Positions 3,379-22,830 of a stretch of DNA of 22,830 nt are shown in pieces. The DNA comes from a virus: the UHGV virus genome UHGV-0089399, one strand, 5' to 3'. Under the pieces are notes generated by a model. It made no database searches. It saw only the letters and a program-made list of their open reading frames with translations, and had not been told where the DNA came from. Each line of letters opens with the position of its first letter. Position 1 is the first letter of the stretch. The position numbers and the translations under genes were made by a program.

Positions 3379-3781
3379 CGTCTTTTCTCCCCGGAATTAA
3401 CTCGCGTGGATTATCGGAACGGTGATAGAGCCAGATACCAATTCGCACTGCGACAATTGCTGATACGAATGCGCCAGCAGAGAAAACAATCCCTTTCTCG
3501 AACGAGTCCTGCGTGATGGTAGGGATCAGGCTGGCTATGCCGATAAGAATTGATGCTGCTGGTTTGTAAAAAAGAAGGCCGCAGAGAAAGCTGAGCATCG
3601 ACAAGAATACGCGACGACGAATTGGATACTCTACCGCAGAGGTAACAAAAATTACCGCACCAGCAAGAGCACCGAGCGCCACCTCTGGCGGAACACCTAC
3701 GATAACCGCAGCAAGAGAGCTCACACTAAGCCATTGATTTAAAGACTCAGTTGTTATGTTAACCGACATAGCACACACCAT
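3365..3781 (-). CDS. Holin-like membrane protein
   Basis: 138 aa with several hydrophobic helices and a charged C-terminal tail ([18 protein letters not shown]). First gene of the lysis cassette. Two in-frame ATGs 4 codons apart (MVCAM). Confidence 0.5.
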   Translation of the reverse strand: MVCAMSVNITTESLNQWLSVSSLAAVIVGVPPEVALGALAGAVIFVTSAVEYPIRRRVFLSMLSFLCGLLFYKPAASILIGIASLIPTITQDSFEKGIVFSAGAFVSAIVAVRIGIWLYHRSDNPRELIPGRKDDGNA

Positions 3782-6709: not shown

Positions 6710-6725
6710 CTGTATAAATATACAG
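6710..6725. promoter_or_regulatory. LexA (SOS) box, CTGT-N8-ACAG
   Basis: CTGTATAAATATACAG is a near-perfect match to the LexA consensus CTGT(AT)4ACAG. Lies about 20 bp upstream of the 6747 start and overlaps the likely promoter (TTGATA upstream). Confidence 0.6.
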
Positions 6726-6746: not shown

Positions 6747-7004
6747 ATGCAGCGGTATCACTATCCACTGGAAGACGGATTTACCGAAAGGATTCACACG
6801 CCGGGAGGCGTCAGGTCACTGGTGGAGGGATCGCACTTGATGAAATTACTCCGGGATCTCGATAAGGATGGATTTAATGTCGATGGCCCACTTGCCGAAC
6901 TGACTGCACTGATTAACTACGTCACCAGCTCACAGATGTCTATGCGGGATCTGCAAACACATCTCGACTATTGTGCCGAACAATTACGAAAACAAACCAG
7001 ATAA
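6747..7004 (+). CDS. Small protein paralogous to the C-terminal domain of the downstream Bro-N protein
   Basis: GGAG ribosome-binding site 8 nt upstream of the ATG. Residues ERIHTPGGVRSLVEGSHLMKLLRDLDKDGFNVDGPLAELTALINYV...MRDLQTHLDY align with RSLIHSPSGVLGLTENSLLMNLLNQLQEDGHDVSGAAAELTTMFCYI...LRDIQTHAEY of the 7319-8011 product. Confidence 0.55.
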   Translation: MQRYHYPLEDGFTERIHTPGGVRSLVEGSHLMKLLRDLDKDGFNVDGPLAELTALINYVTSSQMSMRDLQTHLDYCAEQLRKQTR

Positions 7005-7066: not shown

Positions 7067-7143
7067 TCTTGTGCCATAGTAATCGGGCACTGGCAAAATC
7101 CGGTGCCGGGATTGGTCTCCCGGATTACTACAGAGGCACATAT

Positions 7144-7164
7144 GCCGCATAAGCGGTTTTTTTT
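7144..7164 (+). terminator. Weak intrinsic terminator/attenuator-like hairpin with U8 tract
   Basis: Short stem CCGC-ataa-GCGG followed by tttttttt, between the small ORF and the Bro-N gene. The stem is short, so function is uncertain. Confidence 0.35.
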
Positions 7165-7318
7165 ATGTGTAAAGCGCACCTATTCTATGGTGGGCTGTGT
7201 GGGGGCACCGAAAGGTGCGCCGGGTTCCTTTGTAGCCGGTAAGACCAACTCTGCACAGTTCACCACCATCTGATTGGTCTCAGCGGTGGTGATTAACCTA
7301 ACTACAAAGGTGATCGCC

Positions 7319-8011
7319 ATGAATACCAAACCTTCCATCTTTTCCTTTGAGTCATCCTGCCAGATCCGTATGTTCATGATTGACGGAGAACCTTGGTTTG
7401 TCACCAAAGATGTGTGCAATGCTTTGAATATTGATGTTACACAAGCGAGAAAACTTGATAAAAAAGGCTGGAACAAAAAGGGGCTGTATTCAATACAGAC
7501 CCCTGGTGGAATACAAGAACTATCCATCGTTTCAGAATCAGGTCTCTACATCCTTATTCTGCGTTGCAAAGAGGCAATGACTGAGGGAACGAGAGCATTC
7601 AGATTTCTTGAATGGGTTACAGGCGAGGTTCTTCCTCAGATCCGCCGCACCGGAAGTTACATTAAAAACTCGCTACCGCAGGAAGAACGCATAAAGATGG
7701 TTGCCGACCAGGTAGCCAACGCCACGGCGTCAGCAGTAATGCAGGCGATGAAGATAGAGAACAAAACCTACAACGCCCCGCTGAAGCCCGGCTACCGCAG
7801 CCTGATTCATTCCCCGTCTGGTGTTCTCGGCCTGACGGAGAACTCACTGCTGATGAATCTGCTGAACCAGTTACAGGAAGACGGGCACGACGTATCGGGC
7901 GCGGCGGCGGAGCTGACCACCATGTTCTGCTACATCGTCGGTGTGAGCAAATGCCTGCGTGATATCCAGACGCACGCGGAGTACATCAACGACAAAGCAG
8001 GGTTCTTCTGA
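7319..8011 (+). CDS. Bro-N domain protein (phage antirepressor-like)
   Basis: N-terminal region (FSFESSCQIRMFMIDGEPWFVTKDVCNALN...ESGLYILILRCKEAMTEGTRAFRFLEWVTGEVLPQIRRTGSY) matches the Bro-N/KilA-N-type domain pattern. AGGTGA ribosome-binding site upstream of the ATG at 7319; the track ORF begins earlier at a non-ATG codon. Confidence 0.8.
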   Translation: MNTKPSIFSFESSCQIRMFMIDGEPWFVTKDVCNALNIDVTQARKLDKKGWNKKGLYSIQTPGGIQELSIVSESGLYILILRCKEAMTEGTRAFRFLEWVTGEVLPQIRRTGSYIKNSLPQEERIKMVADQVANATASAVMQAMKIENKTYNAPLKPGYRSLIHSPSGVLGLTENSLLMNLLNQLQEDGHDVSGAAAELTTMFCYIVGVSKCLRDIQTHAEYINDKAGFF

Positions 8012-8140: not shown

Positions 8141-8467
8141 ATGACAAAACTTGGATTCGTGATGAGAGGTCCGGTAAGAAGCGGAACTCATGCAAAGCGT
8201 AGCAAGAGTCGTATTTTTACTGGTAAGGTTGTAGCACGTAAATCAGCTATTGGCTCGTTCAATAGTGAAAATGCGGCATTGCGCCATATTTTTATCAGCA
8301 CAAAGCCAAGAGCATCCGCTGATGTGCATACAATGACTATTCCTATCACAAAGAATATAAAGCGGATAAAAAAGCTCTCATCTGCAGAATCAAAAGAGAT
8401 ATCTTTCCGCCAGCTTAACTCATTAGAAACGCATATGAAGGAAGAGGAATTCGATGTTTTTGAGTGA
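8141..8467 (+). CDS. Hypothetical basic protein (108 aa), first gene of a coupled pair
   Basis: GGAG ribosome-binding site 8 nt upstream. Lys/Arg-rich N-terminus. The 3' end overlaps the next gene by 14 nt. AT-rich relative to flanking DNA. No motif I recognise. Confidence 0.5.
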   Translation: MTKLGFVMRGPVRSGTHAKRSKSRIFTGKVVARKSAIGSFNSENAALRHIFISTKPRASADVHTMTIPITKNIKRIKKLSSAESKEISFRQLNSLETHMKEEEFDVFE

Positions 8468-8966
8468 GTATAGCGGGAAGGTTATACCTACTGGTGAGTT
8501 TAAAACTGATGACTTTCTGATTTCGCTAAAAGATGCTTTTAAACAACACTGGCGTCATGGTCATCATCCTGATCTGGGAAAAGATACTCTTTTTGAAAGA
8601 CCAGACGAAGTATTAGGTTTCCATCTCAGAAAGGTTCATGTCAATATTGGTGAATATGCATCATATTCATACTCATGTACTGAACAGTGTTGGGATGAGT
8701 GGTCATATGGATTGATTGATGAACAAGGAAATTACAGGCCAAAACCAACCAGTAACGCATATCTCATATATGCAGTCAATGAAATAAGAGATGCAGCCTT
8801 ACTAGCTTATTGGGACCCGCCCGCACACACCAAAGCTAACGCAAAAGTTTGGATGGATTCCGTATTGAATTTCACAAAATTATTTCATGAACGAACGAAT
8901 ACAGCTCCACTTAGTAGAAATGTTTATCCGTGGGATTATTCGTACAAATCCAAAAAGCCTGCATAG
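8454..8966 (+). CDS. Hypothetical protein (170 aa), second gene of a coupled pair
   Basis: GAGG ribosome-binding site inside the upstream gene; start overlaps the upstream stop region. Contains a His-rich stretch (WRHGHHPD). No recognisable family. Confidence 0.5.
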   Translation: MFLSEYSGKVIPTGEFKTDDFLISLKDAFKQHWRHGHHPDLGKDTLFERPDEVLGFHLRKVHVNIGEYASYSYSCTEQCWDEWSYGLIDEQGNYRPKPTSNAYLIYAVNEIRDAALLAYWDPPAHTKANAKVWMDSVLNFTKLFHERTNTAPLSRNVYPWDYSYKSKKPA

Positions 8967-9732: not shown

Positions 9733-12207
9733 TTATTGCGGAGTGACATCCTGAGGTCGCCACCAGTATGTCTGGTTAAACTCTTTCTTCGAACGTTGCT
9801 CCATTTTACGCAAATAGCCTAGTGAAAAATACTCCTGCATCTGATTAAAGATCATGTGATCGAGAGCCGCCTTCAAGTACCAGAGATTCGCACCTGGCAT
9901 CAAACCTTTCCCCAGCTTCACCAGATCACCACCAGTCTGCTCACTCTTCCCTTCCACAGCATTTAACGGTATGCCCTGAGCAATCTTCACTACGTCATCA
10001 ACCAGACCAGCTACCGGGCCAAGCATCGACGCCAGCGCGCCGCTTCCGTACCTAGTGTGATCTGACAATAAAAAGTCACCATAAAGGCCAAGACCACCAC
10101 CTTTCAGTAGAGCACCAAGCCAGAATTTTGCGGCATCTTCTCCTGTCATCTCTCGAGGATTACGACCAGACGCAAGGTCGTTAAGTTGTTGCGACAAAGC
10201 GCCAAGAATGGTCGTACTGGCAATAAACGTCGCAATATATGCCGCACGCCCACCAGCAGACGGCATACCCATAGCGCGTGACCAGTGACGCATAACAACC
10301 GAGATAGGGAACGATTTAAACAGGAAAACACTTCTCGTTAATTCACCTTTCCATGTTCCACGCTGAATACCAGAACCGGTTATCAGTTGCTCACGTGCTC
10401 CCGGTGTAATAACAGCCATATCAACTTCTTCAGTTACGGCACCGAGCAGTTTACGCATTGCCTCAAATTTCACGCGTTCAGGCTCACCAAGATGTTTAAC
10501 TGCTGAATCAGGGATACGCATAATGCTTTCCGGTGTCAGCATCGTATTATTACCGTTCCCCCAGTCCTCCTGTTGCGCCAGCTTCCATACGCTCCAGTCT
10601 GTGTCAGTAATCCCTTTGCTTTTCAGGATACGAAAATCAGAGTCATCGAGGCTACGAAGGTCTGGTGTTCGTGACACTACTTCTCCCAGGCTTCCCATCA
10701 TGGTTACGCCATAGGCGCGCTTGTGCGCATCTGACCATGCTGTAAGCCCACTGGCACGCATTACCGCCGTTGCCGCCCAACGAGACACTGACGGCCCCAT
10801 ATTATCCATCGCCCAGCGGTTAACGCTGCCAAGTAGAGATTCCATCGCCAGACCAGCGCGGCGCGCCCGCGCAAGTTCTGTACGGTTCGTTGGGTCCATA
10901 GCTTCAAGCTGGTTGCGGAATAACTGGTTCATTGGAAGGTTGGTAACCTTCGCAGACAGATACATGGTTCCAAGATCAGAGAACGATGACAGCAACGCGG
11001 ATCCGAGTCTGCTGGCAACCAGCCAGTTGCGGATATTGTCAGACCATCGCGCGATGTGCGGATTCGCTACAGGCTGTGTCTTTCCGGAAATAAAGTTGTA
11101 CAGATTCTCTGTGTTGTTCGCTAGCCGCTCGACTTTACCGGTTTTACTCGGGTTAGCGGTTGCCGTTTCTGCCTTCACCTGATCAAGAAGAGAGCGGAAA
11201 ACATGATCGGGGTTTGGGCCATATGTTTCCACCAGTGCAATATCTTTACTGATACCTTCCAGGTGACCGACCATGATTTCCCATAGAGAGCGATCGCCAT
11301 AAAGTTGCTGATATTGCAGATAGGAATCTGCATCTTTGAAATGTATCTGTCGTGATGCATTACCACGGTTAGCACGTGCGCCGGAAATTCGCATTCCGGT
11401 ATCAGTAAGCTTATTCAGCCCACCAGTAGCGATCGTGTTATAAGCCTCTCCAAGAAATGCAGACAACTCGGCATCGTTCATCAGTTGTCCATCGGCTCGG
11501 ATATAATATTTGCGATCCAGCTTACCTATAACATCGCTAACCCACTTATCCTTTGATACCGCCCCAACCTTTTCCATAGAATGATGTTGAGGGATCCCCC
11601 AGTTTTCGAGATAGCCAATGTCCCCACCAGCATCATTAAACCGGCGGCGCAGCAGCTCTGTAACTTCTCTCCACGCCTTAGCACCTTTTCTTGCTTTAGC
11701 ATTGCCAGTATTTTGCCCCCGCATTTCATATACCAAGTCACGTACGCCCGCTTCATCTTCAAACAGACCAAAAAAGCGAGGATCAACTGCTTCGAATGCC
11801 TCCTGCAATTGACTCAATGCATAATCACGGGTGGCTTTTGTTCTGGATTCAACAGAGAGGAAATTAGATTTACCGTCTGCATTAAAAGCTATAGTACGGT
11901 TAAGAGCGCCAAGTTTCCCATCAGCCCCTTGATAGCTATTGATAAATTTATCCAATCTCTGACGCGCGGCTATAGTGAGAGCCACACGACGTTTCTTTAA
12001 TGCCGCTTCTCGCTGTAATTCTTCAGATGCCAATTGTGCTGCTCGATATAGCCGCTCTGATTCGGAAAGTTGTCGCCACGACATCGGGTCATCACGAGCA
12101 ATGGAGCGCATATTTCGATAAATGCGGTCTTCAATGTTCTGTATTTCTCGCGCCGTTAACGTGCGCTGCGCCGCCTGCTGGACCGCTTGTATACATTCCT
12201 GTCTCAT
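9733..12207 (-). CDS. Internal virion/ejection protein, gp16-like C-terminal part
   Basis: 824 aa. C-terminal region (FLFKSFPISVVMRHWSRAM...AAYIATFIASTTILGA) resembles the T7 gp16 C-terminal hydrophobic segment as recalled. GAGG ribosome-binding site upstream. Follows the 600-aa gene after a 5-nt gap. Confidence 0.65.
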   Translation of the reverse strand: MRQECIQAVQQAAQRTLTAREIQNIEDRIYRNMRSIARDDPMSWRQLSESERLYRAAQLASEELQREAALKKRRVALTIAARQRLDKFINSYQGADGKLGALNRTIAFNADGKSNFLSVESRTKATRDYALSQLQEAFEAVDPRFFGLFEDEAGVRDLVYEMRGQNTGNAKARKGAKAWREVTELLRRRFNDAGGDIGYLENWGIPQHHSMEKVGAVSKDKWVSDVIGKLDRKYYIRADGQLMNDAELSAFLGEAYNTIATGGLNKLTDTGMRISGARANRGNASRQIHFKDADSYLQYQQLYGDRSLWEIMVGHLEGISKDIALVETYGPNPDHVFRSLLDQVKAETATANPSKTGKVERLANNTENLYNFISGKTQPVANPHIARWSDNIRNWLVASRLGSALLSSFSDLGTMYLSAKVTNLPMNQLFRNQLEAMDPTNRTELARARRAGLAMESLLGSVNRWAMDNMGPSVSRWAATAVMRASGLTAWSDAHKRAYGVTMMGSLGEVVSRTPDLRSLDDSDFRILKSKGITDTDWSVWKLAQQEDWGNGNNTMLTPESIMRIPDSAVKHLGEPERVKFEAMRKLLGAVTEEVDMAVITPGAREQLITGSGIQRGTWKGELTRSVFLFKSFPISVVMRHWSRAMGMPSAGGRAAYIATFIASTTILGALSQQLNDLASGRNPREMTGEDAAKFWLGALLKGGGLGLYGDFLLSDHTRYGSGALASMLGPVAGLVDDVVKIAQGIPLNAVEGKSEQTGGDLVKLGKGLMPGANLWYLKAALDHMIFNQMQEYFSLGYLRKMEQRSKKEFNQTYWWRPQDVTPQ

Positions 12208-12212
12208 TTAAT

Positions 12213-14015
12213 TTAACCTCTCAAGAAACACGCCACAGCGACATCAAACAGGCTGGAATCCTGTATTGCCTGCTCACTTTCCCTGTTCGCTTCATCCAGT
12301 ACTTCACGCGCGCTGCGCGATTGTGGATTACCATCATCATCCAGCACGGTGATTATCATGTCAGGTGATTCAAGCAGCGAGTCTTCAGCTATGCGCAGAT
12401 CAATATCTCCTGCCTGATCTGACATCATTTTTTGTTCTGCCTGTTGCAATATTTTATCAGGCTCAAAAGGAGCTACTTCGTCTGGCGTCCTGACCTCTGC
12501 TGTTTTATAGAATGAAACAGCCTGAGCATTAAGTTCACTTTCTGCCTGCTGTCTCCGAGCCAGTTCTGCTAGAGCTTCAAAAAACTGACCGCCAGGCTCG
12601 TGCGGTGCCAACGCGTTACGGGAAAATTCCAGGCGTTCTTGTGCCTGCCGGATTCGTTGATCAATATCGCGAAGTCTGGCCTGTTTATCTGATCGAGCAC
12701 GAGACAAAGCTTTACCGCTACCGGTTGGCTCTTCTGCAAGAATTTGTGCACGCTGTTCAGTGAGATTTTCAATAATTCGTTGGCTATTAGCGATTTCCGA
12801 CTGGTAAACCTGTCTATCGCCACGCGGCAAAAGCTGCGCGGCCTGTTCTTCAAGCAACCGATTTTCTATAGCGCGCGCCGTTACTCCATCATCTACAGAT
12901 GACAGAGCCTCATTAACTGCCTGAGACAGCAGACTCTTGCGCCCAGGAATTTCACTGAAAGATGCAGACTCAACAATGCTGGCAACGTCTACAGGTCTCC
13001 CCTGGCTAACATCAGACATGGCTTTTCGCAGAGCCTGAATGTGAGAATTGCGCGAAAGCACGTTGATCGGCACGCCGGGAGCAATATCAATTTCAGCATG
13101 ATGAGCGGCATTCGCCGCCAGTGCAGCATCGACATCAACTGGTGAAAAATTTGGTGCGCTTGTAGACTCGCCGCGAGAGTTAATAAATCTGCCGACACCA
13201 CCAAACGCCACTCCAAGAACAGCATCAATAGCAATTGCCTGTCGATCCAACACATCATACTGATTAGCCATTTCGCTATAGCCACCATCACGAAGCGTTT
13301 TTGCAGTAAGCCCACGCTGTGCCATACCGAACGCAATATTTGTACCTGCGGCATAGGCAATATCTGGCGTTGCACGTACTGCTGTTGCTGCGGCGCGTCG
13401 CACTGAACTTTCACCCGTCCGCGCAAGCTGAGCCGCCACACCTTCCGCCAGCGCACCACCAGCACGTAACCCGAGGCTCATAGGGATCAGTGTTCCGGCA
13501 CCAGCAGTAATACCCTGCACTAATCCCGCTTCCTGCGCCGTCCTGAAATCAACACCCTGTGCTGTCAGCCGTTCAAACTCAGAAAAACCCTGTAGCGAAG
13601 TTACCGCCGCAGCACCTCCGACCGGACCACCGAGCGTTGTACCGACAACAGCCTGCCCGCCCATATCGAACAACCCATAAAGGACCTGCCCGGCGGTTCC
13701 GGTTGTCGCGGCATCAGGCGTCAGCCGCTTAACCTGCTGCTCTGCTAGTTTTCTCTGCTCAGCAATGTATGAAACTGAAGTGTCATTGAACGAGGTGTTT
13801 TCGTTAACAAACTGAGCAATCGGGGATACGATTTTATCCATCCCTGCCCATAGCAACTGATCTGGCTTTGCCACCAGCCCGGAGTACAAACCAGACAATG
13901 CCGCTCCTACAGCATTGTCGAAAAAACCAACATCGCTGTTAAATCCAGCTGGATTTGATGCAGCTTCGTCAAGCTGCTGATTCTGGTTTACTGGATTAAG
14001 GCCAAAGTAACTCAT
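12213..14015 (-). CDS. Internal virion/ejection protein (gp16-like N-terminal part or separate core protein)
   Basis: 600 aa, Gly/Ala-rich with coiled-coil segments. Start overlaps the upstream stop (ATGA). Position between the gp15-like and gp16-like genes. Confidence 0.6.
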   Translation of the reverse strand: MSYFGLNPVNQNQQLDEAASNPAGFNSDVGFFDNAVGAALSGLYSGLVAKPDQLLWAGMDKIVSPIAQFVNENTSFNDTSVSYIAEQRKLAEQQVKRLTPDAATTGTAGQVLYGLFDMGGQAVVGTTLGGPVGGAAAVTSLQGFSEFERLTAQGVDFRTAQEAGLVQGITAGAGTLIPMSLGLRAGGALAEGVAAQLARTGESSVRRAAATAVRATPDIAYAAGTNIAFGMAQRGLTAKTLRDGGYSEMANQYDVLDRQAIAIDAVLGVAFGGVGRFINSRGESTSAPNFSPVDVDAALAANAAHHAEIDIAPGVPINVLSRNSHIQALRKAMSDVSQGRPVDVASIVESASFSEIPGRKSLLSQAVNEALSSVDDGVTARAIENRLLEEQAAQLLPRGDRQVYQSEIANSQRIIENLTEQRAQILAEEPTGSGKALSRARSDKQARLRDIDQRIRQAQERLEFSRNALAPHEPGGQFFEALAELARRQQAESELNAQAVSFYKTAEVRTPDEVAPFEPDKILQQAEQKMMSDQAGDIDLRIAEDSLLESPDMIITVLDDDGNPQSRSAREVLDEANRESEQAIQDSSLFDVAVACFLRG

Positions 14016-16525
14016 TGCGGAATATCTCCGGAGAATCTCTGGCGCTTCTGTGTCAGATTAAGAACAACGGGAGAACCATCATCTTTCAGCAGATAACCAG
14101 TACCAAGCTTCACCAGGTACTGACTATCGCCGTAACTTTGCAAACCATACTGACCAGGCGGTGTTTTTATCCCGGAGCCGACAACTTGTTCATTCCAAGC
14201 CTGATTAACCTGCTTATCGAATTGCTCTGCAGACATTCCCCACGGCAAAAGGACATTCCCCATTCCGTTATAGTCATGCACGCCACCTGTAGCTACGTTA
14301 ACAGCCTGTTTCCAGACATCATTGTCAATTTCTCCTGATACCACGCCTTTTTTCGCCATCACACCAGCGTAATAATCCTTTGCGATCTCGTATGCCATTG
14401 ATGCCCCATGAGCGTCACCAGCAAATGCATCCTTCACCATGTCAGAAAACTCAAGGCGAAGATCAGCATCTTTAGGCATCGGAATACCTTTCGCATCATC
14501 AGTACCTTTACGAGCCGCCGCGCCAGCAAGAATTGTCTGCGCAGCGGTTTCAGGAGACACGGAAACATCCGGATTAAACCAGTTTTTTTCTGCCAAAATA
14601 CCACCAGGCTTATCCATCAGTATCCCGGCAACGGCAGCAGATGGAGCGTTGGCACTGATCTGCTGTAGTGCTGACATATACATCTGCCCACCACCAGTGC
14701 TCTGCCTGATGGTATCGAGATATGCTGCCTGTTGGGAAACTGGAGCATCACGAAAGAAAACACCGATCTGATTGGCCTCGTCTTTGGAAAAGAACGTCAG
14801 TGGAGTGCCATATGACTTAGCAAGGTCACTGACCTGAGCGGCACGCAAGGCAACGCTCTGTCCAAAGTTATCCTTATTGCTCATGTCGATAGGCTTTGCC
14901 TGTCCGGAGGCAAGAGAGAACTGCACAGGATCCGACTGCCGCTGCTTTATCACCTGATTTGCAGCCGAAACAACGTTGTCATAAAGAGCTGCGCGTGCCG
15001 CATACCCCTCCCCTGTATCACCAGTATCCGGGCGTAATTGCTCAACATATGCTGTAATGCTGCTTGTCGGCATGTTGCGGAAAGAGCCTATATACTGTCC
15101 GGCGATCTGCGTATTCTTAAACTCGGTATATCGCAGGTTTCCTTCTCTGACTCCATAAGCTGCAATAAAATCATCCTCACCAGGTGGGTTAGGAAATTCA
15201 ACGCCACGCATATACGCAGCCGTCGCATCGCGAACCCGGCTGTCGAGCATCGTTTTATATTCAGCCTGCTGCTGCCGACGCAGTTGATCCGCCTGTCGCA
15301 TAAAACTTGCTTGCGCCTCAGGAGATGCCGCATCGAATGCTGCATTACCGGTATAGCGTTTGGTGTTGGTTGGAATTGTTGATAAACCAAGTGCTGCACT
15401 GACACCAGCAGTTAACTGCTGATCACTGTATGGCTGGCTACCGTTCTCATGATGGATAATGGCTGCACAAAGCGCCTTCAGGGTATCAGGATTAGATGCA
15501 TCGAGAGGCTCATCAGCAGAAACGCCAAGTTGTTCGCACACTGCTTTGATATACGACATAGTGTCATTTTTATCAGTAGGCGGTGCCCAGCGATTAATTA
15601 TCTCGCTGACGGTATCAATACCCTGCCTCTGATACGACATCAGGTTCCGCCCTAATGCACGAATCCCGTGTTCAGGTGTTTCGAATTTAGCAAATCGACC
15701 ATCATCACCGGTCTGGCCTACCCACGGATTAGTTTTGCTGTATTCGAGATTTCCTGGGTTATTGTTGCGTATGCCACGGGCACGCTCGGAAGAGTCACTA
15801 TCTGCTACAGCACGGCGAGCTCCAGCAGCAGTATCACTTAACTCGCCATTACTTTGGATGAATGCGGTCGCATTGTTTGCCGACCACTGGGACAATGCAG
15901 CATCAGCAACCTTCTCTTTAAACTCGATTTTCTTGGCCTGGATTTGCTCGTCACTCCAGCCATGTGCAATGCCGTAATCCTCAATTTGCTGGAAAGTTTG
16001 CTTATTAGCCAATACGTATGCGGCGTTGTCGCCATACAATGCTGCGGCATTTTTACCATTGTTCAGCAGCGTAGCCTGAAACTGGCCTTCTTCGTAGGCA
16101 TTTATTTGCCCTATCTCGTGCCGCCCTGCCTGCGTAGTGAACTGAATGCGCTGCTGCTGCGCCTGCTGCATGAAAGCATTACGAGCCTGTTCATCCGGCA
16201 GCGACATAGCCAGTTGTTCGACCTGAGCATCAAACTGCTGCGTATACTCCTGACCTTTTCCAATAGCATTTTTCCCTTTCAGGTTAAGCAATCCTGTTTC
16301 AGGATTATTCAGCAGATCACTGCTTATCTGACTGAGGTTAAGAGATGCCTCCTGAGCCAGAGCGATATTGGCACGCTGTTTTGCCTGACCAAAAACATCA
16401 ATTGCCTCTGTCCCTGCCCGAACAAAAGCATCACCAATACCTGGCTGAGAAAACGTCTGCAAGCCTGCTGACTGAACTCCACGGCTCTGAACCTGACGGC
16501 CGGATACTGTTGGTACGACTGGCAT
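14012..16525 (-). CDS. Internal virion protein, gp15-like, with an embedded conserved NNPGN-motif domain (possible cell-wall-active domain)
   Basis: Likely start is the ATG at 16525 (MPVVPTVSGRQ...), with a strong GGAGG ribosome-binding site and a TAATG stop/start overlap with the gp14-like gene. Q-rich coiled-coil N-terminus. Motif GIRNNNPGNLEYSKTNPWVGQ...FAKFETPEHGIRALGRNL. Confidence 0.6.
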   Translation of the reverse strand: MPVVPTVSGRQVQSRGVQSAGLQTFSQPGIGDAFVRAGTEAIDVFGQAKQRANIALAQEASLNLSQISSDLLNNPETGLLNLKGKNAIGKGQEYTQQFDAQVEQLAMSLPDEQARNAFMQQAQQQRIQFTTQAGRHEIGQINAYEEGQFQATLLNNGKNAAALYGDNAAYVLANKQTFQQIEDYGIAHGWSDEQIQAKKIEFKEKVADAALSQWSANNATAFIQSNGELSDTAAGARRAVADSDSSERARGIRNNNPGNLEYSKTNPWVGQTGDDGRFAKFETPEHGIRALGRNLMSYQRQGIDTVSEIINRWAPPTDKNDTMSYIKAVCEQLGVSADEPLDASNPDTLKALCAAIIHHENGSQPYSDQQLTAGVSAALGLSTIPTNTKRYTGNAAFDAASPEAQASFMRQADQLRRQQQAEYKTMLDSRVRDATAAYMRGVEFPNPPGEDDFIAAYGVREGNLRYTEFKNTQIAGQYIGSFRNMPTSSITAYVEQLRPDTGDTGEGYAARAALYDNVVSAANQVIKQRQSDPVQFSLASGQAKPIDMSNKDNFGQSVALRAAQVSDLAKSYGTPLTFFSKDEANQIGVFFRDAPVSQQAAYLDTIRQSTGGGQMYMSALQQISANAPSAAVAGILMDKPGGILAEKNWFNPDVSVSPETAAQTILAGAAARKGTDDAKGIPMPKDADLRLEFSDMVKDAFAGDAHGASMAYEIAKDYYAGVMAKKGVVSGEIDNDVWKQAVNVATGGVHDYNGMGNVLLPWGMSAEQFDKQVNQAWNEQVVGSGIKTPPGQYGLQSYGDSQYLVKLGTGYLLKDDGSPVVLNLTQKRQRFSGDIPQ

Positions 16526-17070
16526 TATAATCCTCCGGGTAATCTGGTTCCTGCTGCTGACCCGATTGGCGCAGGGGTGCTTTGAGTAAACGGACTCCAC
16601 GTCCCACCAAACATCTGGTACGCACCGTATGCCTTCAGAGGCGCAGTGAGCAATGTTGTTGCTGCTCCCACATTCTCCTGTTTACGGGCTGAACTGGCTT
16701 CTGCTTTATAGTTGGCAGCCTGAACCTGATAACCGTAAGCCTCGCGTTGCGCGTTATTCACCGTCGTCAGCGAATCAAGAGCGCCAAACTGGGCAGTGTC
16801 GCCAAATATATCCAGCGCGTTACCTGTAGATAAATCAGCGCCGGTAGCCCCCATTGTCGCCGCCTGTGTACCAAGCCGCTGTCGGGTCTCTCTGCGCCGT
16901 TGCTCAGCTTCAGCGTTACCTCTGTTTATTGCATCATTTGCCTGAGCTGTGGCTATATCTGCGTTCGCTTCTGCAACCTTCGAGGTATACTTTCCCTGTT
17001 GGTACTGGGTGTATGCCTGAATGCCACTCATGGCGAGCATTGCGCCACCAGCAATAACCGGATCGCACAT
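16525..17070 (-). CDS. Internal virion protein A, gp14-like
   Basis: 181 aa starting MCDPVIAGGAMLAMSGIQA, resembling the T7 gp14 N-terminus (MCWAAAIPIAISGAQAI) as recalled. TAATG overlap with the upstream gene. Confidence 0.65.
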   Translation of the reverse strand: MCDPVIAGGAMLAMSGIQAYTQYQQGKYTSKVAEANADIATAQANDAINRGNAEAEQRRRETRQRLGTQAATMGATGADLSTGNALDIFGDTAQFGALDSLTTVNNAQREAYGYQVQAANYKAEASSARKQENVGAATTLLTAPLKAYGAYQMFGGTWSPFTQSTPAPIGSAAGTRLPGGL

Positions 17071-17534
17071 TATTTTCTCTCCATGTGAAATCTGTGGAAA
17101 TTAAGACCAAGAGCACCATAAGGCGCGGCTTCTTCAAGCCTGAATCCAAGCCAGTGCAGCCATGCTTTGGCAACATGGTTTCGCTCGTCGACATAGTTTT
17201 CCAGGCGCGGATAAACTGCCAGCATCTGCTGCAATACAGGGCGGCAGTGGCGAAGAAATGTCTTCTGATATTTTTCGATACGGCTGGTTCCGACCAGCCA
17301 GGGCGTACCATTGCCACCGATCATTGACGCCGGAGATACGCCAAACATGGTTACCAGTTCTCCGTTCGCAAATCCTGACCAGGACATAGTCGCAGTACGC
17401 AGACCAACACGCAGCGCATCTTCGGTAGTCATCAGTGATACCGCATACAGTTCGTCAATATCAGCCTGACGAACATCCGGCAAAATCATCTGAAGATGCT
17501 CTTCGGTTGCGGGAATAATTTGAACATCGATCAT
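17070..17534 (-). CDS. Hypothetical virion protein at the gp13 position
   Basis: 154 aa, sitting between the gp12-like and gp14-like genes with overlapping stop/start codons. Assigned by position only. Confidence 0.4.
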   Translation of the reverse strand: MIDVQIIPATEEHLQMILPDVRQADIDELYAVSLMTTEDALRVGLRTATMSWSGFANGELVTMFGVSPASMIGGNGTPWLVGTSRIEKYQKTFLRHCRPVLQQMLAVYPRLENYVDERNHVAKAWLHWLGFRLEEAAPYGALGLNFHRFHMERK

Positions 17535-20005
17535 CAGAATCCCCCAACAGTAAGGCGAGGAATAACTGCAAGAACAGACAGCGGCAACGGATCAAGCTGA
17601 CGGATTTTTACACGTCCGTTTTTGCCCCAGTTACTGTCCAGTTTCACTTCTACTTTTCCGGTAGCATCATCAACAGGATCATCGTAGAACTCGAATTCAC
17701 GCTGTGGATATTCGTACCATTTACCGCCGGGCGTAGTCGCCCAGATGCCGCGACTGGCATTCACAACCAGAGTAACGGACGGGATCACCTGTTTTTTGTC
17801 CAGCAGCGTTTCCTGTCCGTTAATGTTGATATCCAGTGTTTCGAATTCAGCAGTTATTGGCAGGCCGATGTGCACTACAGCCCCCGGAGATTCCAGCGTG
17901 ACGGCACCTCCGGAAACCACTTTCTGTGGTTCCACGTTCGCATCAGAGAGGATGTTTACGGTCTGGCCTTCAAGATGAGACAAGCCGCCAAATGTCCGGC
18001 GCGCCATCTGCCAGTTCGTGGTGGCCACATTCCTGAGGGATGGCGGGACGTTCCTGTTAGCACGAACCACTACAGCGGTATTGCTGGTTACAGAAATAAT
18101 GTCGCAACGTAATTCTTTTGACACTTCATCGCCAATATCAGGAACAGTTCCGGCATAAGGGAACTGTAGTTGCGCGCCGACATCACTACTGGTGAAGTAC
18201 GCACCACCAGAAATACTGATTGTATATTCCGCGCGGTAATCCCATTCACCAGAACCACCAGTGATGGTCATCGTTCTGTCAGACGTATTTCTTCCATCAT
18301 AGCTAAGGCCAGAATCAACAAAGAAAGCATCTTCATCGCTGGTAAATAAACGGCTGGACAGTCGCTCTATGTATCTCACTGTTTGCCCGTTAACGGTTCG
18401 GTTAACGACGAAATACACCGCATCTTCATTGCCTTCGCTGATACTGCATGTGCTTTCATATTTCCCGGTACTGGATTGTGGTGCCCATGCAAAAACCTGC
18501 TGATCACGCAAATAGGTCATCACCAGTAATTTACCGTCATCACGAATGCAGAAGGCGCTGGAGTAAGGGACAATCGAGAAGCACCAGTCAACAATGCTGT
18601 GCTTCTGAAAAAGATGATTGGCAAGGATGGTCAGGTCGTTCCCCTGATAGCCGTCAACATCGAATGAGTAGGCCAGATCACGGACAACACTGCCTTTCTC
18701 CTGGACGAACAGAGCAATATTCGCCACGGCAATTGGTGGGACATTGCTCGAGCCATTTGATCCCTGAGAGCTGAATGCAAATGATGATGGGGTTAACACT
18801 TTGTTCTGGTCGCCGGTGATGACGTACTCACCTCCGGAAGTCAGCGCCACCAGCGAACCAACATCAATCAGGTGACGGATCTCATTAACCTGACGCCCGG
18901 CATAGGTGTAGATAATTCTGTCGTCATCCTGCGTAGGATTGCTTTTGCCAAAATCCTTATAATCCCCGGTACGGCTGGCCCAGATAGTCTGAGGGAACGC
19001 AGTCGATGCGGCGAAGTAAAGACGTTGTTGATAATAAACAACAGTGCCAGGATAACCATTAACTCTGTTCCAGGCATATTTAGCCCATTTATAGCTGGCA
19101 TTATCCTCGCCAACGACCTGCGAAGGGATATAGGAAATCACCTGGGCAGTTGCAGTAGTGCCATTTGCAACAGTGATACGGGCAATGCCAAAACCACTGT
19201 GCAGATATTCCCACTCAATGCCAGTATCATCATCTCCGGATCCGCCCCAGCCATCCCATGATGTGCCTTCTGTATGCGAAGGGCGCAAAGTGCCTGTTTT
19301 ACCTGCCGTAACAGCACGATAGTAGTTACTGTCTGCACGGCGAATATCGCCAATCGACGTACTCTTACTGGTTTCCCATACCGGTACTGAATCCACTGCT
19401 GGCTGTTCCAGATAGAACAATTTGCCTACCTGTTCCGCGCCAAAAATAGAGGCGTTTGCCGTTAACGTAATTGTCCCGGTGCTGGCGCTGGCATAAACCG
19501 TCACTGACTCGTCAATATTGATATCTTCAAATGGCCCGTTCTTCGTTACCACATCAACCAGTTGCCAGTTGTCATGCGCATAGCGGCGCAACTCTTTCGG
19601 CGGGTATGCCGGGTGAACCAGCGTAAGCACGTCGGCGCTTTGCGTGAATTTAATTCGGAACAGATCGGCTTCAGTATATGGCGTGGCAATTTCATAAATA
19701 ACATTGCTGCTGTTCAGCACCAACGCACCATCTTTGATAACGCGCATGTACTGGTGTCCGAACTCCAGAGCATAGGTCTGAACCGTCGAGAACTGGAACG
19801 GGATCAGACGGCATTTCCGATTTGGGTATTTGGCGGCACCGACAAAACGCGTACCAGGTCGATTCTCAACGCCGCCATACTGCCGCACGATAAAATTATC
19901 GCACTTGCGCAATGCCACCTGGTACTTCGCCATGTCGATACGTCCGAACAACGACGGTCCAATCTCACCACCGGCAAAGCTGGGCTGGATCCAACTGATA
20001 GCCAT
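17534..20005 (-). CDS. Tail tubular protein B, gp12-like
   Basis: 823 aa (T7 gp12 is about 794 aa). N-terminus MAISWIQPSFAGGEIGP...ENRPGTRF resembles the gp12 N-terminal pattern. Immediately downstream of the gp11-like gene with overlapping codons. Confidence 0.65.
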   Translation of the reverse strand: MAISWIQPSFAGGEIGPSLFGRIDMAKYQVALRKCDNFIVRQYGGVENRPGTRFVGAAKYPNRKCRLIPFQFSTVQTYALEFGHQYMRVIKDGALVLNSSNVIYEIATPYTEADLFRIKFTQSADVLTLVHPAYPPKELRRYAHDNWQLVDVVTKNGPFEDINIDESVTVYASASTGTITLTANASIFGAEQVGKLFYLEQPAVDSVPVWETSKSTSIGDIRRADSNYYRAVTAGKTGTLRPSHTEGTSWDGWGGSGDDDTGIEWEYLHSGFGIARITVANGTTATAQVISYIPSQVVGEDNASYKWAKYAWNRVNGYPGTVVYYQQRLYFAASTAFPQTIWASRTGDYKDFGKSNPTQDDDRIIYTYAGRQVNEIRHLIDVGSLVALTSGGEYVITGDQNKVLTPSSFAFSSQGSNGSSNVPPIAVANIALFVQEKGSVVRDLAYSFDVDGYQGNDLTILANHLFQKHSIVDWCFSIVPYSSAFCIRDDGKLLVMTYLRDQQVFAWAPQSSTGKYESTCSISEGNEDAVYFVVNRTVNGQTVRYIERLSSRLFTSDEDAFFVDSGLSYDGRNTSDRTMTITGGSGEWDYRAEYTISISGGAYFTSSDVGAQLQFPYAGTVPDIGDEVSKELRCDIISVTSNTAVVVRANRNVPPSLRNVATTNWQMARRTFGGLSHLEGQTVNILSDANVEPQKVVSGGAVTLESPGAVVHIGLPITAEFETLDININGQETLLDKKQVIPSVTLVVNASRGIWATTPGGKWYEYPQREFEFYDDPVDDATGKVEVKLDSNWGKNGRVKIRQLDPLPLSVLAVIPRLTVGGF

Positions 20006-20613
20006 CAGGACAACCTCGCAATGGTAAACTCATCAACCGGTGGCTGTGGTTCCTGTGATTCATTCTGGCTATGCGAGCCAGCACTAAGAATCACGCGATT
20101 GTACATATTGAGGGCAAACGTACCGAGGTCTGCATTCCCAGTCAGCGCCATGTTAATAGCTGCCGCAAGACGCCAGGCCAACGCCTCCATAAAAATGGCA
20201 TCAAACATGTTCACATCTGTAACGCGAGAGACATACTTGAGCCATGCCTGAGGCTGGTCTGTGTAGATCAACTTTCCTGTTCCGTTGGTGTCTGCACCAA
20301 CTTCGTACTGAACGCGCATTGATGCTGTTGGATTGCGTACACCAGGAAGCATAATTTCAGTAATGCGCAGACAATCTGACGGGTACTGGTACGCATATTC
20401 CCAGTCAGGCGGTGGATTGCTCGTATCTGCAAGCGCCACGCGTTTGGTAGCAAAGTTCCAGTCAAAATCAGAAAGCACAGCATCACGGCAGGCCTCAAAG
20501 TGCAGCGAACATTCCCCCGCTTCCTTGCTGGCTTCCGTCAGGCTGTTAATGCTGCGGCTGTTGCCAATATTGGACAGCGCACGATTGCAGATCTCTACTA
20601 CAGAGGCCATCAC
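20005..20613 (-). CDS. Tail tubular protein A, gp11-like
   Basis: About 200 aa. N-terminus (ICNRALSNIGNSRSINSLTE) resembles T7 gp11 (VNDILASIGEPPVSTLE) as recalled. GGAGGTGA ribosome-binding site upstream. Size and order match the T7 tail module. Confidence 0.65.
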   Translation of the reverse strand: MMASVVEICNRALSNIGNSRSINSLTEASKEAGECSLHFEACRDAVLSDFDWNFATKRVALADTSNPPPDWEYAYQYPSDCLRITEIMLPGVRNPTASMRVQYEVGADTNGTGKLIYTDQPQAWLKYVSRVTDVNMFDAIFMEALAWRLAAAINMALTGNADLGTFALNMYNRVILSAGSHSQNESQEPQPPVDEFTIARLS

Positions 20614-20933
20614 TCACCTCCGTTACCGTACAGAGTTTCAGCCGCTGATTTTTCTACATCCCCGGAAACAGGAGCGATCGCCATATCAGTGATCTGCAGA
20701 TCGGCGCTGCGATTAACGCCATCGTCAGTTTCTCTGGCAGACAGGCCTCGAATAACAGCCTTTGCAGTTATCATCACTTCTGTTCCGACGCCCTGAGGTT
20801 GCGCCTTCAGCTTATTCAATGTGTCGTTATTCAGCGTGATGCACAGCCCCCACGGGTATTCATCGCGAGTTCTGGTTTCTCCGCTCTCATCCTGGTAGCT
20901 GTCAGTGCCGGTTTTGAGGTTTACGAGTTCCAT
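20610..20933 (-). CDS. Hypothetical protein (107 aa), translationally coupled to the gp11-like gene
   Basis: Start MELVNLK at 20933, preceded by a GGAG ribosome-binding site and a GC hairpin. Stop overlaps the gp11-like start. The track ORF extends further upstream into the ArdC gene end and is probably too long. Confidence 0.4.
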   Translation of the reverse strand: MELVNLKTGTDSYQDESGETRTRDEYPWGLCITLNNDTLNKLKAQPQGVGTEVMITAKAVIRGLSARETDDGVNRSADLQITDMAIAPVSGDVEKSAAETLYGNGGE

Positions 20934-20950
20934 ATACACTCCTGCAATAA

Positions 20951-20966
20951 AGGGGCCGAAGCCCCT
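20951..20966 (-). terminator. GC-rich hairpin (AGGGGC-ttcg-GCCCCT) at the 3' end of the ArdC-like gene
   Basis: Perfect 6-bp stem with a UUCG-type loop, followed on the minus strand by TTATTG. Overlaps the ArdC-like stop codon. Confidence 0.4.
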
Positions 20967-21960
20967 ACCCTGCAATGTCATCAGGTTGGGTGTCGCCGAA
21001 TAGCTGCGCATCGAGACGTTCGCCGATGAACCGCACGACCTGACGCACATCGCTCAGAACCGAGAAGATGAATGCAGGTTCCGCGCGGATCTTCTCCAGC
21101 CAGCCTTTCAAGTAGGCGACGTTCTCTGAACGGATGCCGCTCGAAATCCCGAGGCCGCAACCGGCCAGAGCTGCCGAAAATTCAGCGACCAGCTCCTCGC
21201 GGCCGTAAGCCTGACGCGACCGATCCTCGAAGTGCCGGTCCAGACGGTCGGCAGTACCCGTCGAATGGCTCATCTCGTGAAGAAGCGTGGAATAAAATGC
21301 CTCCAGATCGGAGAACTGCTCTTTGAGAGGCACGACGATAATATCGTCCGCCGGAGAGTAGGACGCCCGGTCGCCGACCTTCAGGCGGATCGGACAGACC
21401 CAGGATTGCGCCTCGAGCATACGCTCGAGAGTCGGATGCGCCGTGCCTGCGGGACGCCGGGGATGAGCCTGCCGGTCGAAGATCTGCTGCCAACGCTGCG
21501 GATACCGTTCGGCAAAGTCCGTTTGGTCGAGATTCAGTACCGGGTAAAAACGCAAGCTGAACCGCAGCACATACTCCTTGCGCTCGGATTCGGAAAGATT
21601 TTTGAAATCCTCTACCGAAAGATAGCGGGGTTTGCCTTCAACCGGAGTGGCGGCCAGGTAAAAGGGCTTCCAGAAAATCACCGGAAATTGTTTCGAGCCC
21701 TTGCGGACCTGCAAACCGAGTTCTTTGGCCTGCTTAAAGGTGACGAATACAGGGCTCTGGTAGCCCTTAACCTCCGTAAGCATAAGCAACGTCAGAATGT
21801 TCGCGCCGGTATAATTCCTCCCGGAGACAATGTTGTAGGGAAGAACGCCCTGTCCGAAGATCCACGGCTTCTGCCAGGATTCGGTCATGGACTCGATCTT
21901 GGCGATCATCAATTCTGCGAAATGCGAAGAGACTTTCTCGAGAACATCAGAATGTGACAT
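20965..21960 (-). CDS. ArdC-like antirestriction protein (ssDNA-binding N-domain plus zincin-like metalloprotease C-domain)
   Basis: 331 aa. C-terminal metalloprotease motif LLHEMSHSTGTADRLDR (HExxH followed by TG...RL.R), characteristic of the ArdC family. GC-rich coding sequence unlike the neighbouring phage genes. Confidence 0.7.
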   Translation of the reverse strand: MSHSDVLEKVSSHFAELMIAKIESMTESWQKPWIFGQGVLPYNIVSGRNYTGANILTLLMLTEVKGYQSPVFVTFKQAKELGLQVRKGSKQFPVIFWKPFYLAATPVEGKPRYLSVEDFKNLSESERKEYVLRFSLRFYPVLNLDQTDFAERYPQRWQQIFDRQAHPRRPAGTAHPTLERMLEAQSWVCPIRLKVGDRASYSPADDIIVVPLKEQFSDLEAFYSTLLHEMSHSTGTADRLDRHFEDRSRQAYGREELVAEFSAALAGCGLGISSGIRSENVAYLKGWLEKIRAEPAFIFSVLSDVRQVVRFIGERLDAQLFGDTQPDDIAG

Positions 21961-22421
21961 AACGTAAATGCAGACTTTATCCTCCTGCGCCGGAGTTCTA
22001 AACTGCCTGAAACGCTCAGAACAGCGATGCAGACTCAGCCGATCCGGGCGACTGCTTCAAAGGCAAGGACCCGGAAGGAAATATTTGCCGTCGAGACATC
22101 GACGGGCGCAGCGGACAAATATTTCCGAATCGGGCCAGGCGGCCAGCCTAACCAGGCTGGACGATCCTTGCCGCTGTCGAACGGATGTCGGCTAACTTTG
22201 CATCCATGTTGTGAGTGGAAATACCGCTCTCCCCCGGATGACGAGTTCGCTTGTCGATCGCGGTCGTCCGCGAGCTGAGCCCGGCGGCATAGTCGCCGGG
22301 AGCTGCAAGTTCAGGGGGCCCGAAGGTCGTGCGACAGGATCGGAGATCCGCACGGCGAGATAGCCGGTGGTCAACCGGCAACCGGCTATGGCCGGGTCCG
22401 ATGAATTTCTATGTGATGAAT

Positions 22422-22448
22422 CACAAAAAAAGAGGGGCTTAGCCCCTC
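22422..22448 (-). terminator. Rho-independent terminator
   Basis: Stem GAGGGGC-tta-GCCCCTC (22432-22448), followed on the minus strand by TTTTTTTGTG. Lies just downstream of the stop of the 22454-22825 ORF. Confidence 0.6.
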
Positions 22449-22453
22449 CTCCA

Positions 22454-22825
22454 TCATCCAATGATGTGGATTTCTCCGGAAATCCCGAGTTCACGAAGGT
22501 TGCGAAGCAGGCGGCCGAGATGTTTAGCCTCCTGCTCCTTCGCATTGGAACCAGGCGTATCGAGCCAGGTGTTGATGTCTGACTTGTAATTGTCGGTCCG
22601 TTCGACAAGATCATCGATAACATTCACCAGGTTGTCTAAATACACCTCCGGAACACGGTTCGTCTCGGTTCCGGAATCATCCAGAAGGCGGACTTCGAAA
22701 AGATCCAGACCCTCGTCGTAGAGCACAGCGACCCAGCCTTTGTGCTTGAAACCACTGACATGGAACCAAAGGCCCTCCATATCATCCCTACGATACGGAG
22801 CCCGTTTCTCCAAGCCCCACGACAT
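22454..22825 (-). CDS. Hypothetical acidic protein (123 aa as seen; may extend beyond the window edge)
   Basis: Open frame reaching the last codons of the window, ended by a clear terminator. No recognisable motif. GC-rich. Confidence 0.35.
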   Translation of the reverse strand: MSWGLEKRAPYRRDDMEGLWFHVSGFKHKGWVAVLYDEGLDLFEVRLLDDSGTETNRVPEVYLDNLVNVIDDLVERTDNYKSDINTWLDTPGSNAKEQEAKHLGRLLRNLRELGISGEIHIIG

Positions 22826-22830
22826 CTGAA

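Follow-up and report, generated by a model that had tools for sequence, protein, structure and literature searches.

We here analyzed a stretch of viral DNA of 22,830 nucleotides (nt), the UHGV virus genome UHGV-0089399 (in the following called the window), with focus on a block of seven genes at positions 9733–20613. This block is, very probably, the tail and internal-core (ejection protein) operon of a temperate podovirus of the phiV10/epsilon15 type (genus Uetakevirus), carried as a prophage at the guaA-proximal attachment (att) site of Escherichia coli. Established here are what the element is, how its genes are laid out and, for five of the seven proteins, their homology. An earlier note on this DNA had proposed a T7-type tail and ejection operon inside an integrated temperate phage, an architecture now supported by specific remote homology of those five proteins to their T7 counterparts. 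The surprise implied by combining a temperate lifestyle with a T7-type tail was not borne out, however, the element belonging to a known temperate genus with 98% DNA identity to phiV10.

The identity of the element was evident from direct comparisons. Using megablast against 50,697 phage records, the block was found to be 98.0–98.2% identical in DNA, at 100% coverage, to phiV10, vB_EcoP_ZX5, phiv142-3 and the O157 typing phages 9 and 10, whereas the identity was 81% for Enterobacter phage Tyrion and approximately 75% for Salmonella phage epsilon15. According to the taxonomy lines of their records, the matched phages are temperate podoviruses of the genus Uetakevirus. Positions 1–20966 of the window furthermore recur with 100% identity in 41 complete E. 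coli chromosomes. In one of these (NZ_CP033884) the prophage spans from yfgI to guaA, with genes that encode a tyrosine integrase adjoining guaA, a helix-turn-helix repressor, RecT, a PD-(D/E)XK nuclease and DnaT-like and P replication proteins, further genes for both terminase subunits (small and large), the portal, a protease, the major capsid protein, a Bbp16-type cement protein and the staple, and, past the staple, the block studied here, the tailspike and a holin–holin–GH19 endolysin–spanin cassette. The remainder of the prophage, which the earlier note had proposed to inspect, thus holds an integrase and a repressor, with no RNA polymerase annotated, in the complete identical E. coli copies. 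The same copies have a full head module, and the region is hence no remnant devoid of head genes, which had been the outcome named as speaking against the proposal.

Integration beside host genes, as also proposed, was confirmed at the left end of the window, where yfgG, yfgH and yfgI occupy 185–1760 and an exact att core, ATTGAGTGGGAATGATT, is found at 1853–1869 on the minus strand (one copy, with none expected by chance). Located between yfgI and the spanin gene, this core marks the left prophage boundary. The same sequence is reported as the attP core of phiV10, epsilon15 and ZX5, the corresponding attB being the 3' terminus of guaA, and both lysogeny of ZX5 at this site and its spontaneous induction have been shown by experiment (PMC9782041). 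Gene-by-gene synteny was seen with gp10–gp17 of epsilon15 and p13–p20 of phiV10, and the Uetakevirus organisation was matched gene for gene (staple, gp11–gp17 block, small genes, tailspike, holins/endolysin/spanin and attP), the integrase lying outside the window, at the far end of the complete E. coli copies. The element is also common: the staple/adaptor segment was present in 516 of 5,426 complete E. coli genomes and relatives of the nozzle were found in 485 IMG/VR contigs, of which the best 80 had 98–99% identity.

All seven open reading frames (ORFs) of the block are on the minus strand. They are predicted to encode, in order, a tail adaptor of the T7 gp11 type, or 'tail tubular protein A' (20005–20613; 202 amino acids (aa), corresponding to 201 aa from the ATG used by PGAP; assigned by PDB, PHROG and hhalign matches), a tail nozzle of the gp12 type (17534–20005; 823 aa; PDB, hhalign and Pfam matches of homologues), a gp13-family internal virion protein (17070–17534; 154 aa; phrog_308, hhalign and phmmer) and a gp14-family internal virion protein that would form the outer-membrane pore of the ejectosome (16525–17070; 181 aa; Pfam, hhalign and PGAP). 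These are followed by three large internal proteins. The first, of 837 aa when counted from ATG, occupies the gp15 position, has an inserted lytic transglycosylase/lysozyme-like domain and corresponds to p18 of phiV10 and gp15 of epsilon15 (14012–16525; phrog_992). The second is an all-helical protein of 600 aa at the position of phiV10 p19 and epsilon15 gp16 (12213–14015; phrog_1145). The third is an internal virion/ejection protein of 824 aa, corresponding to phiV10 p20 and, by position and PHROG family, to epsilon15 gp17 (9733–12207; phrog_684, 'virion structural protein'). NCBIfam gave no match for any protein of the module. Minus-strand genes run uninterrupted from 20933 to 9733, beginning with a capsid staple of 107 aa of the epsilon15 gp10 type (20610–20933, minus strand; Pfam Gp10-like PF21628 at 2.9e-51 and PGAP 'capsid staple protein'), which is the last head gene preceding the tail block. 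The T7 proteins gp11 to gp16 have 196, 794, 138, 196, 747 and 1318 aa, to be compared with 202, 823, 154, 181, 837 and 600 + 824 aa in the block, and together with the ORF positions this parallel bore out the T7-like order, the sizes and the coordinates that had been claimed. Stop and start codons were also said to overlap throughout, which held at all junctions but one: four junctions overlap by 1 nt (TGATG/TAATG type) and the junction between the 837-aa and 600-aa genes by 4 nt (ATGA), but a spacer of 5 nt, with no overlap, precedes the 824-aa gene.

The kinship of the block with T7 was assessed by comparing family profiles. Module-side alignments were made from ten phages (the window, epsilon15, MPK9, BcepC6B, Ab31, VP5, YeP5, APEC, Skadi-3 and ST11-OXA245phi3.2) and T7-side alignments from seven Autographiviridae (T7, SP6, phiKMV, P-SSP7, KP34, Syn5 and HTVC019P), whereupon hhalign was run on all 42 family pairs of the resulting 7 × 6 matrix. 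With only 2–4 sequences on the T7 side, gp11 and gp14 did not give sufficient signal, which was remedied by adding KP34, Syn5 and HTVC019P. Homologue searches with the 600-aa protein and the nozzle returned near-identical copies (98–100%) that were unfit for profiles, the necessary diversity being obtained with tblastn against phage records and a representative search. Five cells of the matrix were positive, of which four lie on the positional diagonal: the 202-aa protein with gp11 (68.7% probability, E 4.5e-5, 134 columns), the 823-aa protein with gp12 (98.8%, E 4.4e-17, 491 columns), the 154-aa protein with gp13 (99.0%, E 9.3e-18, 144 columns) and the 181-aa protein with gp14 (83.4%, E 8.4e-6, 169 columns, being its full length). 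The fifth was the 824-aa protein with gp16 (94.9%, E 4.6e-8, 204 columns). The remaining 37 cells, which serve as an internal control, did not exceed 0.6%. As judged from these profiles, five of the seven proteins appear to be homologous to T7 gp11, gp12, gp13, gp14 and the C-terminal half of gp16, in a relationship that we consider real but remote. The T7 families not matched by the window proteins were those of gp11 (PF17212/phrog_446), gp12 (PF25675/phrog_457), gp15 (phrog_1339) and gp16 (phrog_342). Checking the gp11, gp12, gp14, gp15 and gp16 families by hidden Markov models, as the earlier note had advised, thus gave a divided result, with gp14 passing its Pfam model and profile links found for gp11, gp12 and the C-terminal half of gp16, but none for gp15.

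The adaptor and nozzle assignments agree with solved structures. The adaptor matched the 'Connector Protein' of Carin-1 (PDB 8ck1_E, 3.5e-26) and 9efk_T (2.9e-5), as well as phrog_394 ('tail protein') and phrog_9239 ('tail tubular protein'), with no match to the Pfam model Tube (PF17212). The nozzle was matched along its entire length by 8ck1_A, the 'Tail Nozzle' of Carin-1 (4e-216), and also by 9efk_M (1.5e-15). The chains of 9EFK matched by nozzle and adaptor are orf18 and orf17, respectively, this entry presumably being the LME-1 structure. The 823-aa protein of the window did not match the Pfam model Phage_nozzle, the gathering score of which is passed by its homologues in MPK9, BcepC6B and YeP5 (phmmer 1e-97 to 1e-179), and by these matches it can be assigned as a predicted gp12-type nozzle. 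A RefSeq note on epsilon15 gp11 similarly mentions HHpred similarity to T7 tail tubular protein A (3j4b).

For the two small internal proteins, family membership points in the same direction. The 154-aa protein shares phrog_308 with T7 gp13 and matched gp13 of P-SSP7 using phmmer (2.9e-7), and the 181-aa protein passes Pfam T7_gp14 (PF24072) at 32.1 bits, with a gathering score of 27, and is labelled 'virion core protein, T7 gp14 family' by PGAP. Homologues of the internal virion proteins gp13 and gp14 are thereby predicted to be present. Single-sequence PDB searches with the 154-, 181-, 600- and 824-aa proteins gave nothing meaningful. The P22-type ejection proteins were also considered as candidates for the block and were rejected, their sizes and families not fitting.

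The three large proteins depart from the T7 arrangement. The predicted muralytic domain of the 837-aa protein, at approximately residues 240–400, matched Gp29 of 9vvp (3.9e-38) and the endolysin 7q47 (2.7e-17), with no phmmer match to the SLT domain of T7. Such an insert in the first large protein was found solely in the versions of epsilon15, ST11 and the window. In BcepC6B the SLT domain is in the second large protein, and in phage APEC it is the second large protein that is annotated as a lytic transglycosylase. With the insert in the first large protein here and the SLT domain in the second in BcepC6B, the muralytic domain therefore seems to be mobile within the module. T7 gp16, in which an SLT domain at the N-terminus and a membrane-active C-terminal part are joined in one protein, has no such equivalent here, the muralytic domain lying within the 837-aa protein instead of at the N-terminal end of a gp16 counterpart.

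The 824-aa protein aligned to approximately residues 725–1150 of T7 gp16, with a QFKSF motif in both, and its Skadi-3 homologue matched the T7 gp16 family phrog_342 at the same place (E 0.0024). That gp16 had been split into the 600-aa and 824-aa genes, as proposed from the gene sizes, consequently held for the 824-aa protein as the C-terminal half, but the 600-aa protein had neither sequence nor fold signal to the N-terminal half. In terms of identity, the 824-aa protein was 94% identical to that of Salmonella phage SPN1S, 44% to Pseudomonas phage MPK9 (42–44% to MPK9 and Yersinia phage YeP5) and 27.8% to gp17 of the epsilon15 isolate VB_ST_E15. As a separate observation, the block is mosaic, with its 824-aa protein far from epsilon15 gp17 and its upstream genes having about 75% DNA identity to epsilon15.

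The AlphaFold2 model of the 600-aa protein was all-helical with a predicted local distance difference test (pLDDT) score of 81.6. Its family comprises 1351 clusters at 50% identity, with residues 1–390 conserved and a variable C-terminus. Long homologues of 1100–2100 aa (P0142, P0189 and P0193) keep the N-terminal approximately 350 aa and have ART-PolyVal or ddrB-ParB domains in their C-terminal parts. Had they been fused to an 824-aa-like part, a split gp16 would have been favoured, but that notion was rejected because their C-termini carry the other domains. The pattern is that of 'polyvalent' proteins, for which injection along with the DNA has been proposed. It suggests that the N-terminal domain of the 600-aa protein serves to carry effectors for injection, and it fits, although it does not prove, an ejected carrier role for the protein. 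It is tempting, but tentative at best, to view the epsilon15-type ejectosome as a three-protein variant of that in T7, wherein the C-terminal half of gp16 would be a separate protein (824 aa), the muralytic insert would move from the first to the second large protein or back, and the N-terminal approximately 390 aa of the 600-aa protein would be a general carrier for packaging in the virion and for ejection, by which, in other phages, fused effector domains (ADP-ribosyltransferase, ParB-like) would enter the host together with the DNA.

Several observations weigh against regarding the block as a T7-type tail and ejection operon of an intact prophage. In BLASTP searches the window proteins did not match T7 gp11, gp12, gp14 or gp16, and in an all-versus-all phmmer comparison of 14 phages the sole links across the two groups were the gp13 and weak gp14 matches. 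The N-terminal sequence patterns that the earlier note had perceived as T7-like could accordingly not be recovered as pairwise similarity, at the N-termini or elsewhere. The adaptor–gp11 link is moderate, albeit the only cell above background in its hhalign row. The 837-aa family gave no hhalign signal to gp15 or gp16, with either a ten- or a 40-member alignment, and the same was true for the 600-aa protein, deeper alignments included, for which a fold search with the model gave generic helical folds only. Profile searches of PDB with the 600-aa and 837-aa families found nothing. An AlphaFold2 model of the 837-aa protein, of low quality in the insert and with a mean pLDDT of 70.7, was compared using Foldseek with 350,542 PDB chains, giving 9jyy_G, 7eyb_A, 6yt5_A and 7k5c_A at ranks 1, 2, 4 and 5, all from entries that contain T7 gp15 chains and with 7eyb_A explicitly being gp15, but these scores were not significant (E 0.017–0.41, template modelling score 0.14–0.20). 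The notion of the 837-aa protein as gp15 hence agreed with gene position but had no sequence signal, and the modelled fold provides a hint and not a demonstration of a gp15 counterpart. The functional roles are furthermore drawn from homology to T7, Carin-1 and LME-1, and the window itself has no head genes, its DNA being foreign from position 20967.

With these reservations, the following mode of action can be proposed for the tail and internal-core operon. The genes would be expressed from one late minus-strand transcript with translational coupling between them. The 201-aa adaptor would form a dodecameric ring on the portal, and the 823-aa nozzle would be a hexamer closing the channel, which together with the adaptor bears the tailspikes (3945–6551). 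Above the portal, an internal core would be packaged that consists of the gp13-like and gp14-like proteins and the three large helical ones. Upon adsorption to O-antigen, the core proteins would be expelled via the nozzle, the gp14-like protein may open the outer membrane, the 837-aa protein may cut the peptidoglycan by means of its inserted transglycosylase domain, and the 600- and 824-aa proteins may finish a periplasm-spanning conduit to the inner membrane, with the 824-aa protein as its gp16-C-type part. What this scheme says of stoichiometries, of the sequence of ejection, of the functions of the 837- and 600-aa proteins and of the steps specific to the 837-, 600- and 824-aa proteins is inferred. 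In line with it, a review passage states that epsilon15 ejects internal proteins that form a tail-like tube and describes a T7-like core stack (PMC8954989, citing Chang 2010 and Jiang 2006).

The three large proteins could alternatively be external tail components, forming a central tail tube, instead of an ejected core. This would agree with a genetic study of epsilon15 by Guichard et al. 2013, according to which, as cited in PMC12391199, gp15 and gp17/gp16 take part in a tail packaging/injection device. We find it improbable to a high degree, because the adaptor and nozzle roles are already taken by the gp11- and gp12-type proteins (201 and 823 aa), with homologues solved as connector and nozzle. 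Moreover, the 824-aa protein aligns with the C-terminal half of gp16, the genes for the large proteins come after those of the gp13 and gp14 homologues as do the internal core genes in T7, and in pelagiphages the homologues carry the annotation of internal virion proteins.

The right end of the window is a separate matter from the prophage. Searches of complete E. coli genomes (5,426), plasmids (72,556) and phage records (50,697) gave no match to positions 20967–22830. Directly past the staple gene, at 20965–21960, is a gene for a protein of 331 aa with ArdC-N and zincin metallopeptidase domains, identical copies of which occur in at least 24 contigs from metagenomes. On at least seven of the other contigs, the gene lies amid those for a TraG-type coupling protein, DUF5712, SSB and a methyltransferase, with no phage genes. 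It was joined to the phage block in one contig only, which is that of the window itself (ENA ERZ827482 NODE_391, 65,103 bp, coverage 4.67). The closest genomic relatives of the protein were from Bacteroidales (Alistipes, with 46% identity and a 95% identical fragment, followed by Dysgonomonas, Prevotella and Tannerella), and an exact 44-mer of the foreign segment was absent from species-representative genomes. The switch between the two parents is inside an 18-nt terminator hairpin, AAAGGGGCCGAAGCCCCT (20949–20966), identical in both.

One might consider that the prophage in the sampled organism is a defective remnant, wherein head and packaging genes have been replaced by a segment of a conjugative element via the shared hairpin. 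The position of the ArdC-N/zincin gene in the window and its contig would agree with this, as would a crossover within an 18-nt sequence identical in both parents, but the foreign part makes up the final approximately 2 kb of a 65-kb contig at 4.7× coverage, the same ArdC protein has a conjugative context free of phage genes on other contigs, its relatives are from Bacteroidales and never from enterobacteria, the foreign part is found in none of the E. coli genomes, plasmids and phages, and the 41 genomes that are fully identical up to 20966 continue into head genes. We therefore give a defective remnant very little credence, and a genuine recombination at the junction equally little. Most likely the right end is Bacteroidales conjugative-element DNA joined by an assembly or library chimera, which is the simplest explanation for an inter-phylum join at a short palindrome near the end of a contig with low coverage. 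The lack of head genes in the window does not, with a chimeric right end, show that the prophage is defective.

That the element should be a true T7-family (Autographiviridae) phage turned temperate, with its own RNA polymerase and an acquired integrase in the manner of Pelagibacter phage HTVC019P, which has both, can essentially be dismissed: the order and sizes of the block do resemble T7 gp11–gp16, but the complete identical prophage has no annotated RNA polymerase, and therefore is not an Autographiviridae phage, its regulation and replication genes are of lambdoid type, no T7 promoter was found in the window at up to three mismatches (promoters of other RNA polymerase specificities not being searched), and the block groups with Uetakevirus phages at 98% identity, with PHROG and Pfam families differing from those of T7 gp11, gp12, gp15 and gp16. 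The earlier note had likewise noticed no T7-type promoter.

Outside of the tail and core operon, the window holds the lysis, tailspike and regulatory genes of the prophage. The lysis cassette (1957–3781, minus strand) comprises an Rz-like DUF2514 spanin (1957–2454; PGAP and Pfam DUF2514), a GH19 endolysin (2451–3080; PGAP and Pfam Glyco_hydro_19), a holin (3070–3378; PGAP) and a Phage_holin_8 holin (3365–3781; PGAP and Pfam Phage_holin_8), with the same gene order as in epsilon15 and phiV10. The lambdoid-style lysis cassette that had been proposed is thus present but, like the BRO-N gene described below, ordinary Uetakevirus equipment and no unusual combination. The tailspike of 868 aa (3945–6551, minus strand) matched phrog_17220 over its full length and Pfam Lipase_GDSL_2, with an N-terminus matching many PHROGs of tail fibres and tailspikes. 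It consists of an N-terminal particle-binding part of Uetakevirus type (residues 1–246) and an SGNH/GDSL esterase domain (residues 268–447). The gap between the tailspike and holin genes is only 164 nt, so that neither the oac gene of phiV10 nor the epsilon15 genes for O-antigen modification are present.

A perfect LexA box, CTGTATAAATATACAG, was found at 6710–6725, just upstream of an ORF of 85 aa (6747–7004, plus strand) at the position of epsilon15 gp19 and phiV10 p24, and the unit closes with a terminator-like hairpin at 7144–7157. The genes for the Hfq-binding small RNA isrK (7087–7163, plus strand, 73.7 bits) and the C4 antisense RNA (7183–7270, plus strand, 78.6 bits), both at Rfam gathering level, directly precede a BRO-N antirepressor-like gene (7319–8011), in a layout like the immI cassette of P1/P7 and the isrK antirepressor cassette of Gifsy-1. 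The SOS-regulated antirepressor of the earlier note must hence be revised, since the LexA box precedes the 85-aa ORF and the BRO-N gene sits behind the two RNA genes; by its predicted operator, the SOS-controlled gene is the 85-aa ORF and not the BRO-N gene. Further downstream on the plus strand, an ORF of 108 aa with no family match (8141–8467) overlaps a gene for a 170-aa protein (8454–8966), named 'YafO family toxin' by PGAP and matching Pfam YafO_toxin at 19.7 bits, below the gathering score of 25. This pair (8141–8966) is possibly a toxin–antitoxin moron.

The T7 kinship of this type of tail is already known, from public annotation as well as from papers. The RefSeq record of epsilon15 labels gp13 and gp14 as internal virion proteins, and in pelagiphage records the same seven genes are annotated as tail tube A and B and internal virion proteins. 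Temperate phages with T7-type tails are also on record, with LME-1, Ab31 and BcepC6B (integrase), and among Autographiviridae HTVC019P has an integrase. As a discovery, the present finding of a common and described type of temperate coliphage accordingly carries little weight. Its by-products are a gene-by-gene map of which epsilon15-type proteins have T7 counterparts and which do not, and a chimera warning for the right end of the window. We also noted that published tables of 'epsilon15 ejection proteins' disagree with the actual genes: Table 1 of PMC8954989 gives gp11, gp12 and gp13 as 229, 499 and 708 aa, in conflict with the 201, 825 and 154 aa of the epsilon15 record, and seems to describe a P22-like phage instead.

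Comparing the module with known systems, T7 shares its order, its sizes, remote homology of gp11–gp14 and of the C-terminal half of gp16, and a muralytic domain on an internal protein. It differs in having two large proteins and not three and in carrying its transglycosylase at the N-terminus of gp16 and not inside the protein at the gp15 position, with no homology demonstrated for gp15 or the N-terminal half of gp16; unlike T7, the phage studied here is temperate and has neither RNA polymerase nor T7 promoters. The solved adaptor/connector and nozzle of Carin-1 (PDB 8CK1), a Cobetia phage, and of Legionella LME-1 are homologous in sequence to the 202- and 823-aa proteins; these phages have other hosts and, compared by these two proteins, the identity is low for all but the Carin-1 nozzle. 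LME-1, an integrated Legionella element with T7-ordered structural genes, has a dodecameric adaptor and a hexameric nozzle closely resembling the T7 tail, and Carin-1 has been termed 'another T7-like virus' (PMC12407071). Temperate podoviruses of the Bordetella BPP-1, Burkholderia BcepC6B and Pseudomonas Ab31 type and Skadi-type pelagiphages have the same seven-gene module, composed of tubes A and B, gp13- and gp14-like proteins and three large ones, several of them with integrases and with phmmer E-values of 1e-5 to 1e-225 against the window proteins, but differ in the position of the muralytic domain and in their replication and regulation modules. Closer still is epsilon15, the type species, having the same seven-gene module and head type (staple and Bbp16-like cement) and about 75% DNA identity from gp10 to gp15, and with an internal core and a tube in the periplasm on record (PMC8954989), but the last two proteins are mosaic and its serotype-conversion genes are absent here. 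Closest are phiV10 and its relatives (ZX5, phiv142-3 and the O157 typing phages 9 and 10), which share 98% DNA identity over the 10.9-kb block, the gene order from staple to lysis, the att core and the guaA site. Compared with phiV10, which also has the BRO-N gene between tail block and tailspike, the present prophage differs in the C-terminal part of its tailspike, with its SGNH esterase, lacks oac between tailspike and holins and has the extra YafO-like pair.

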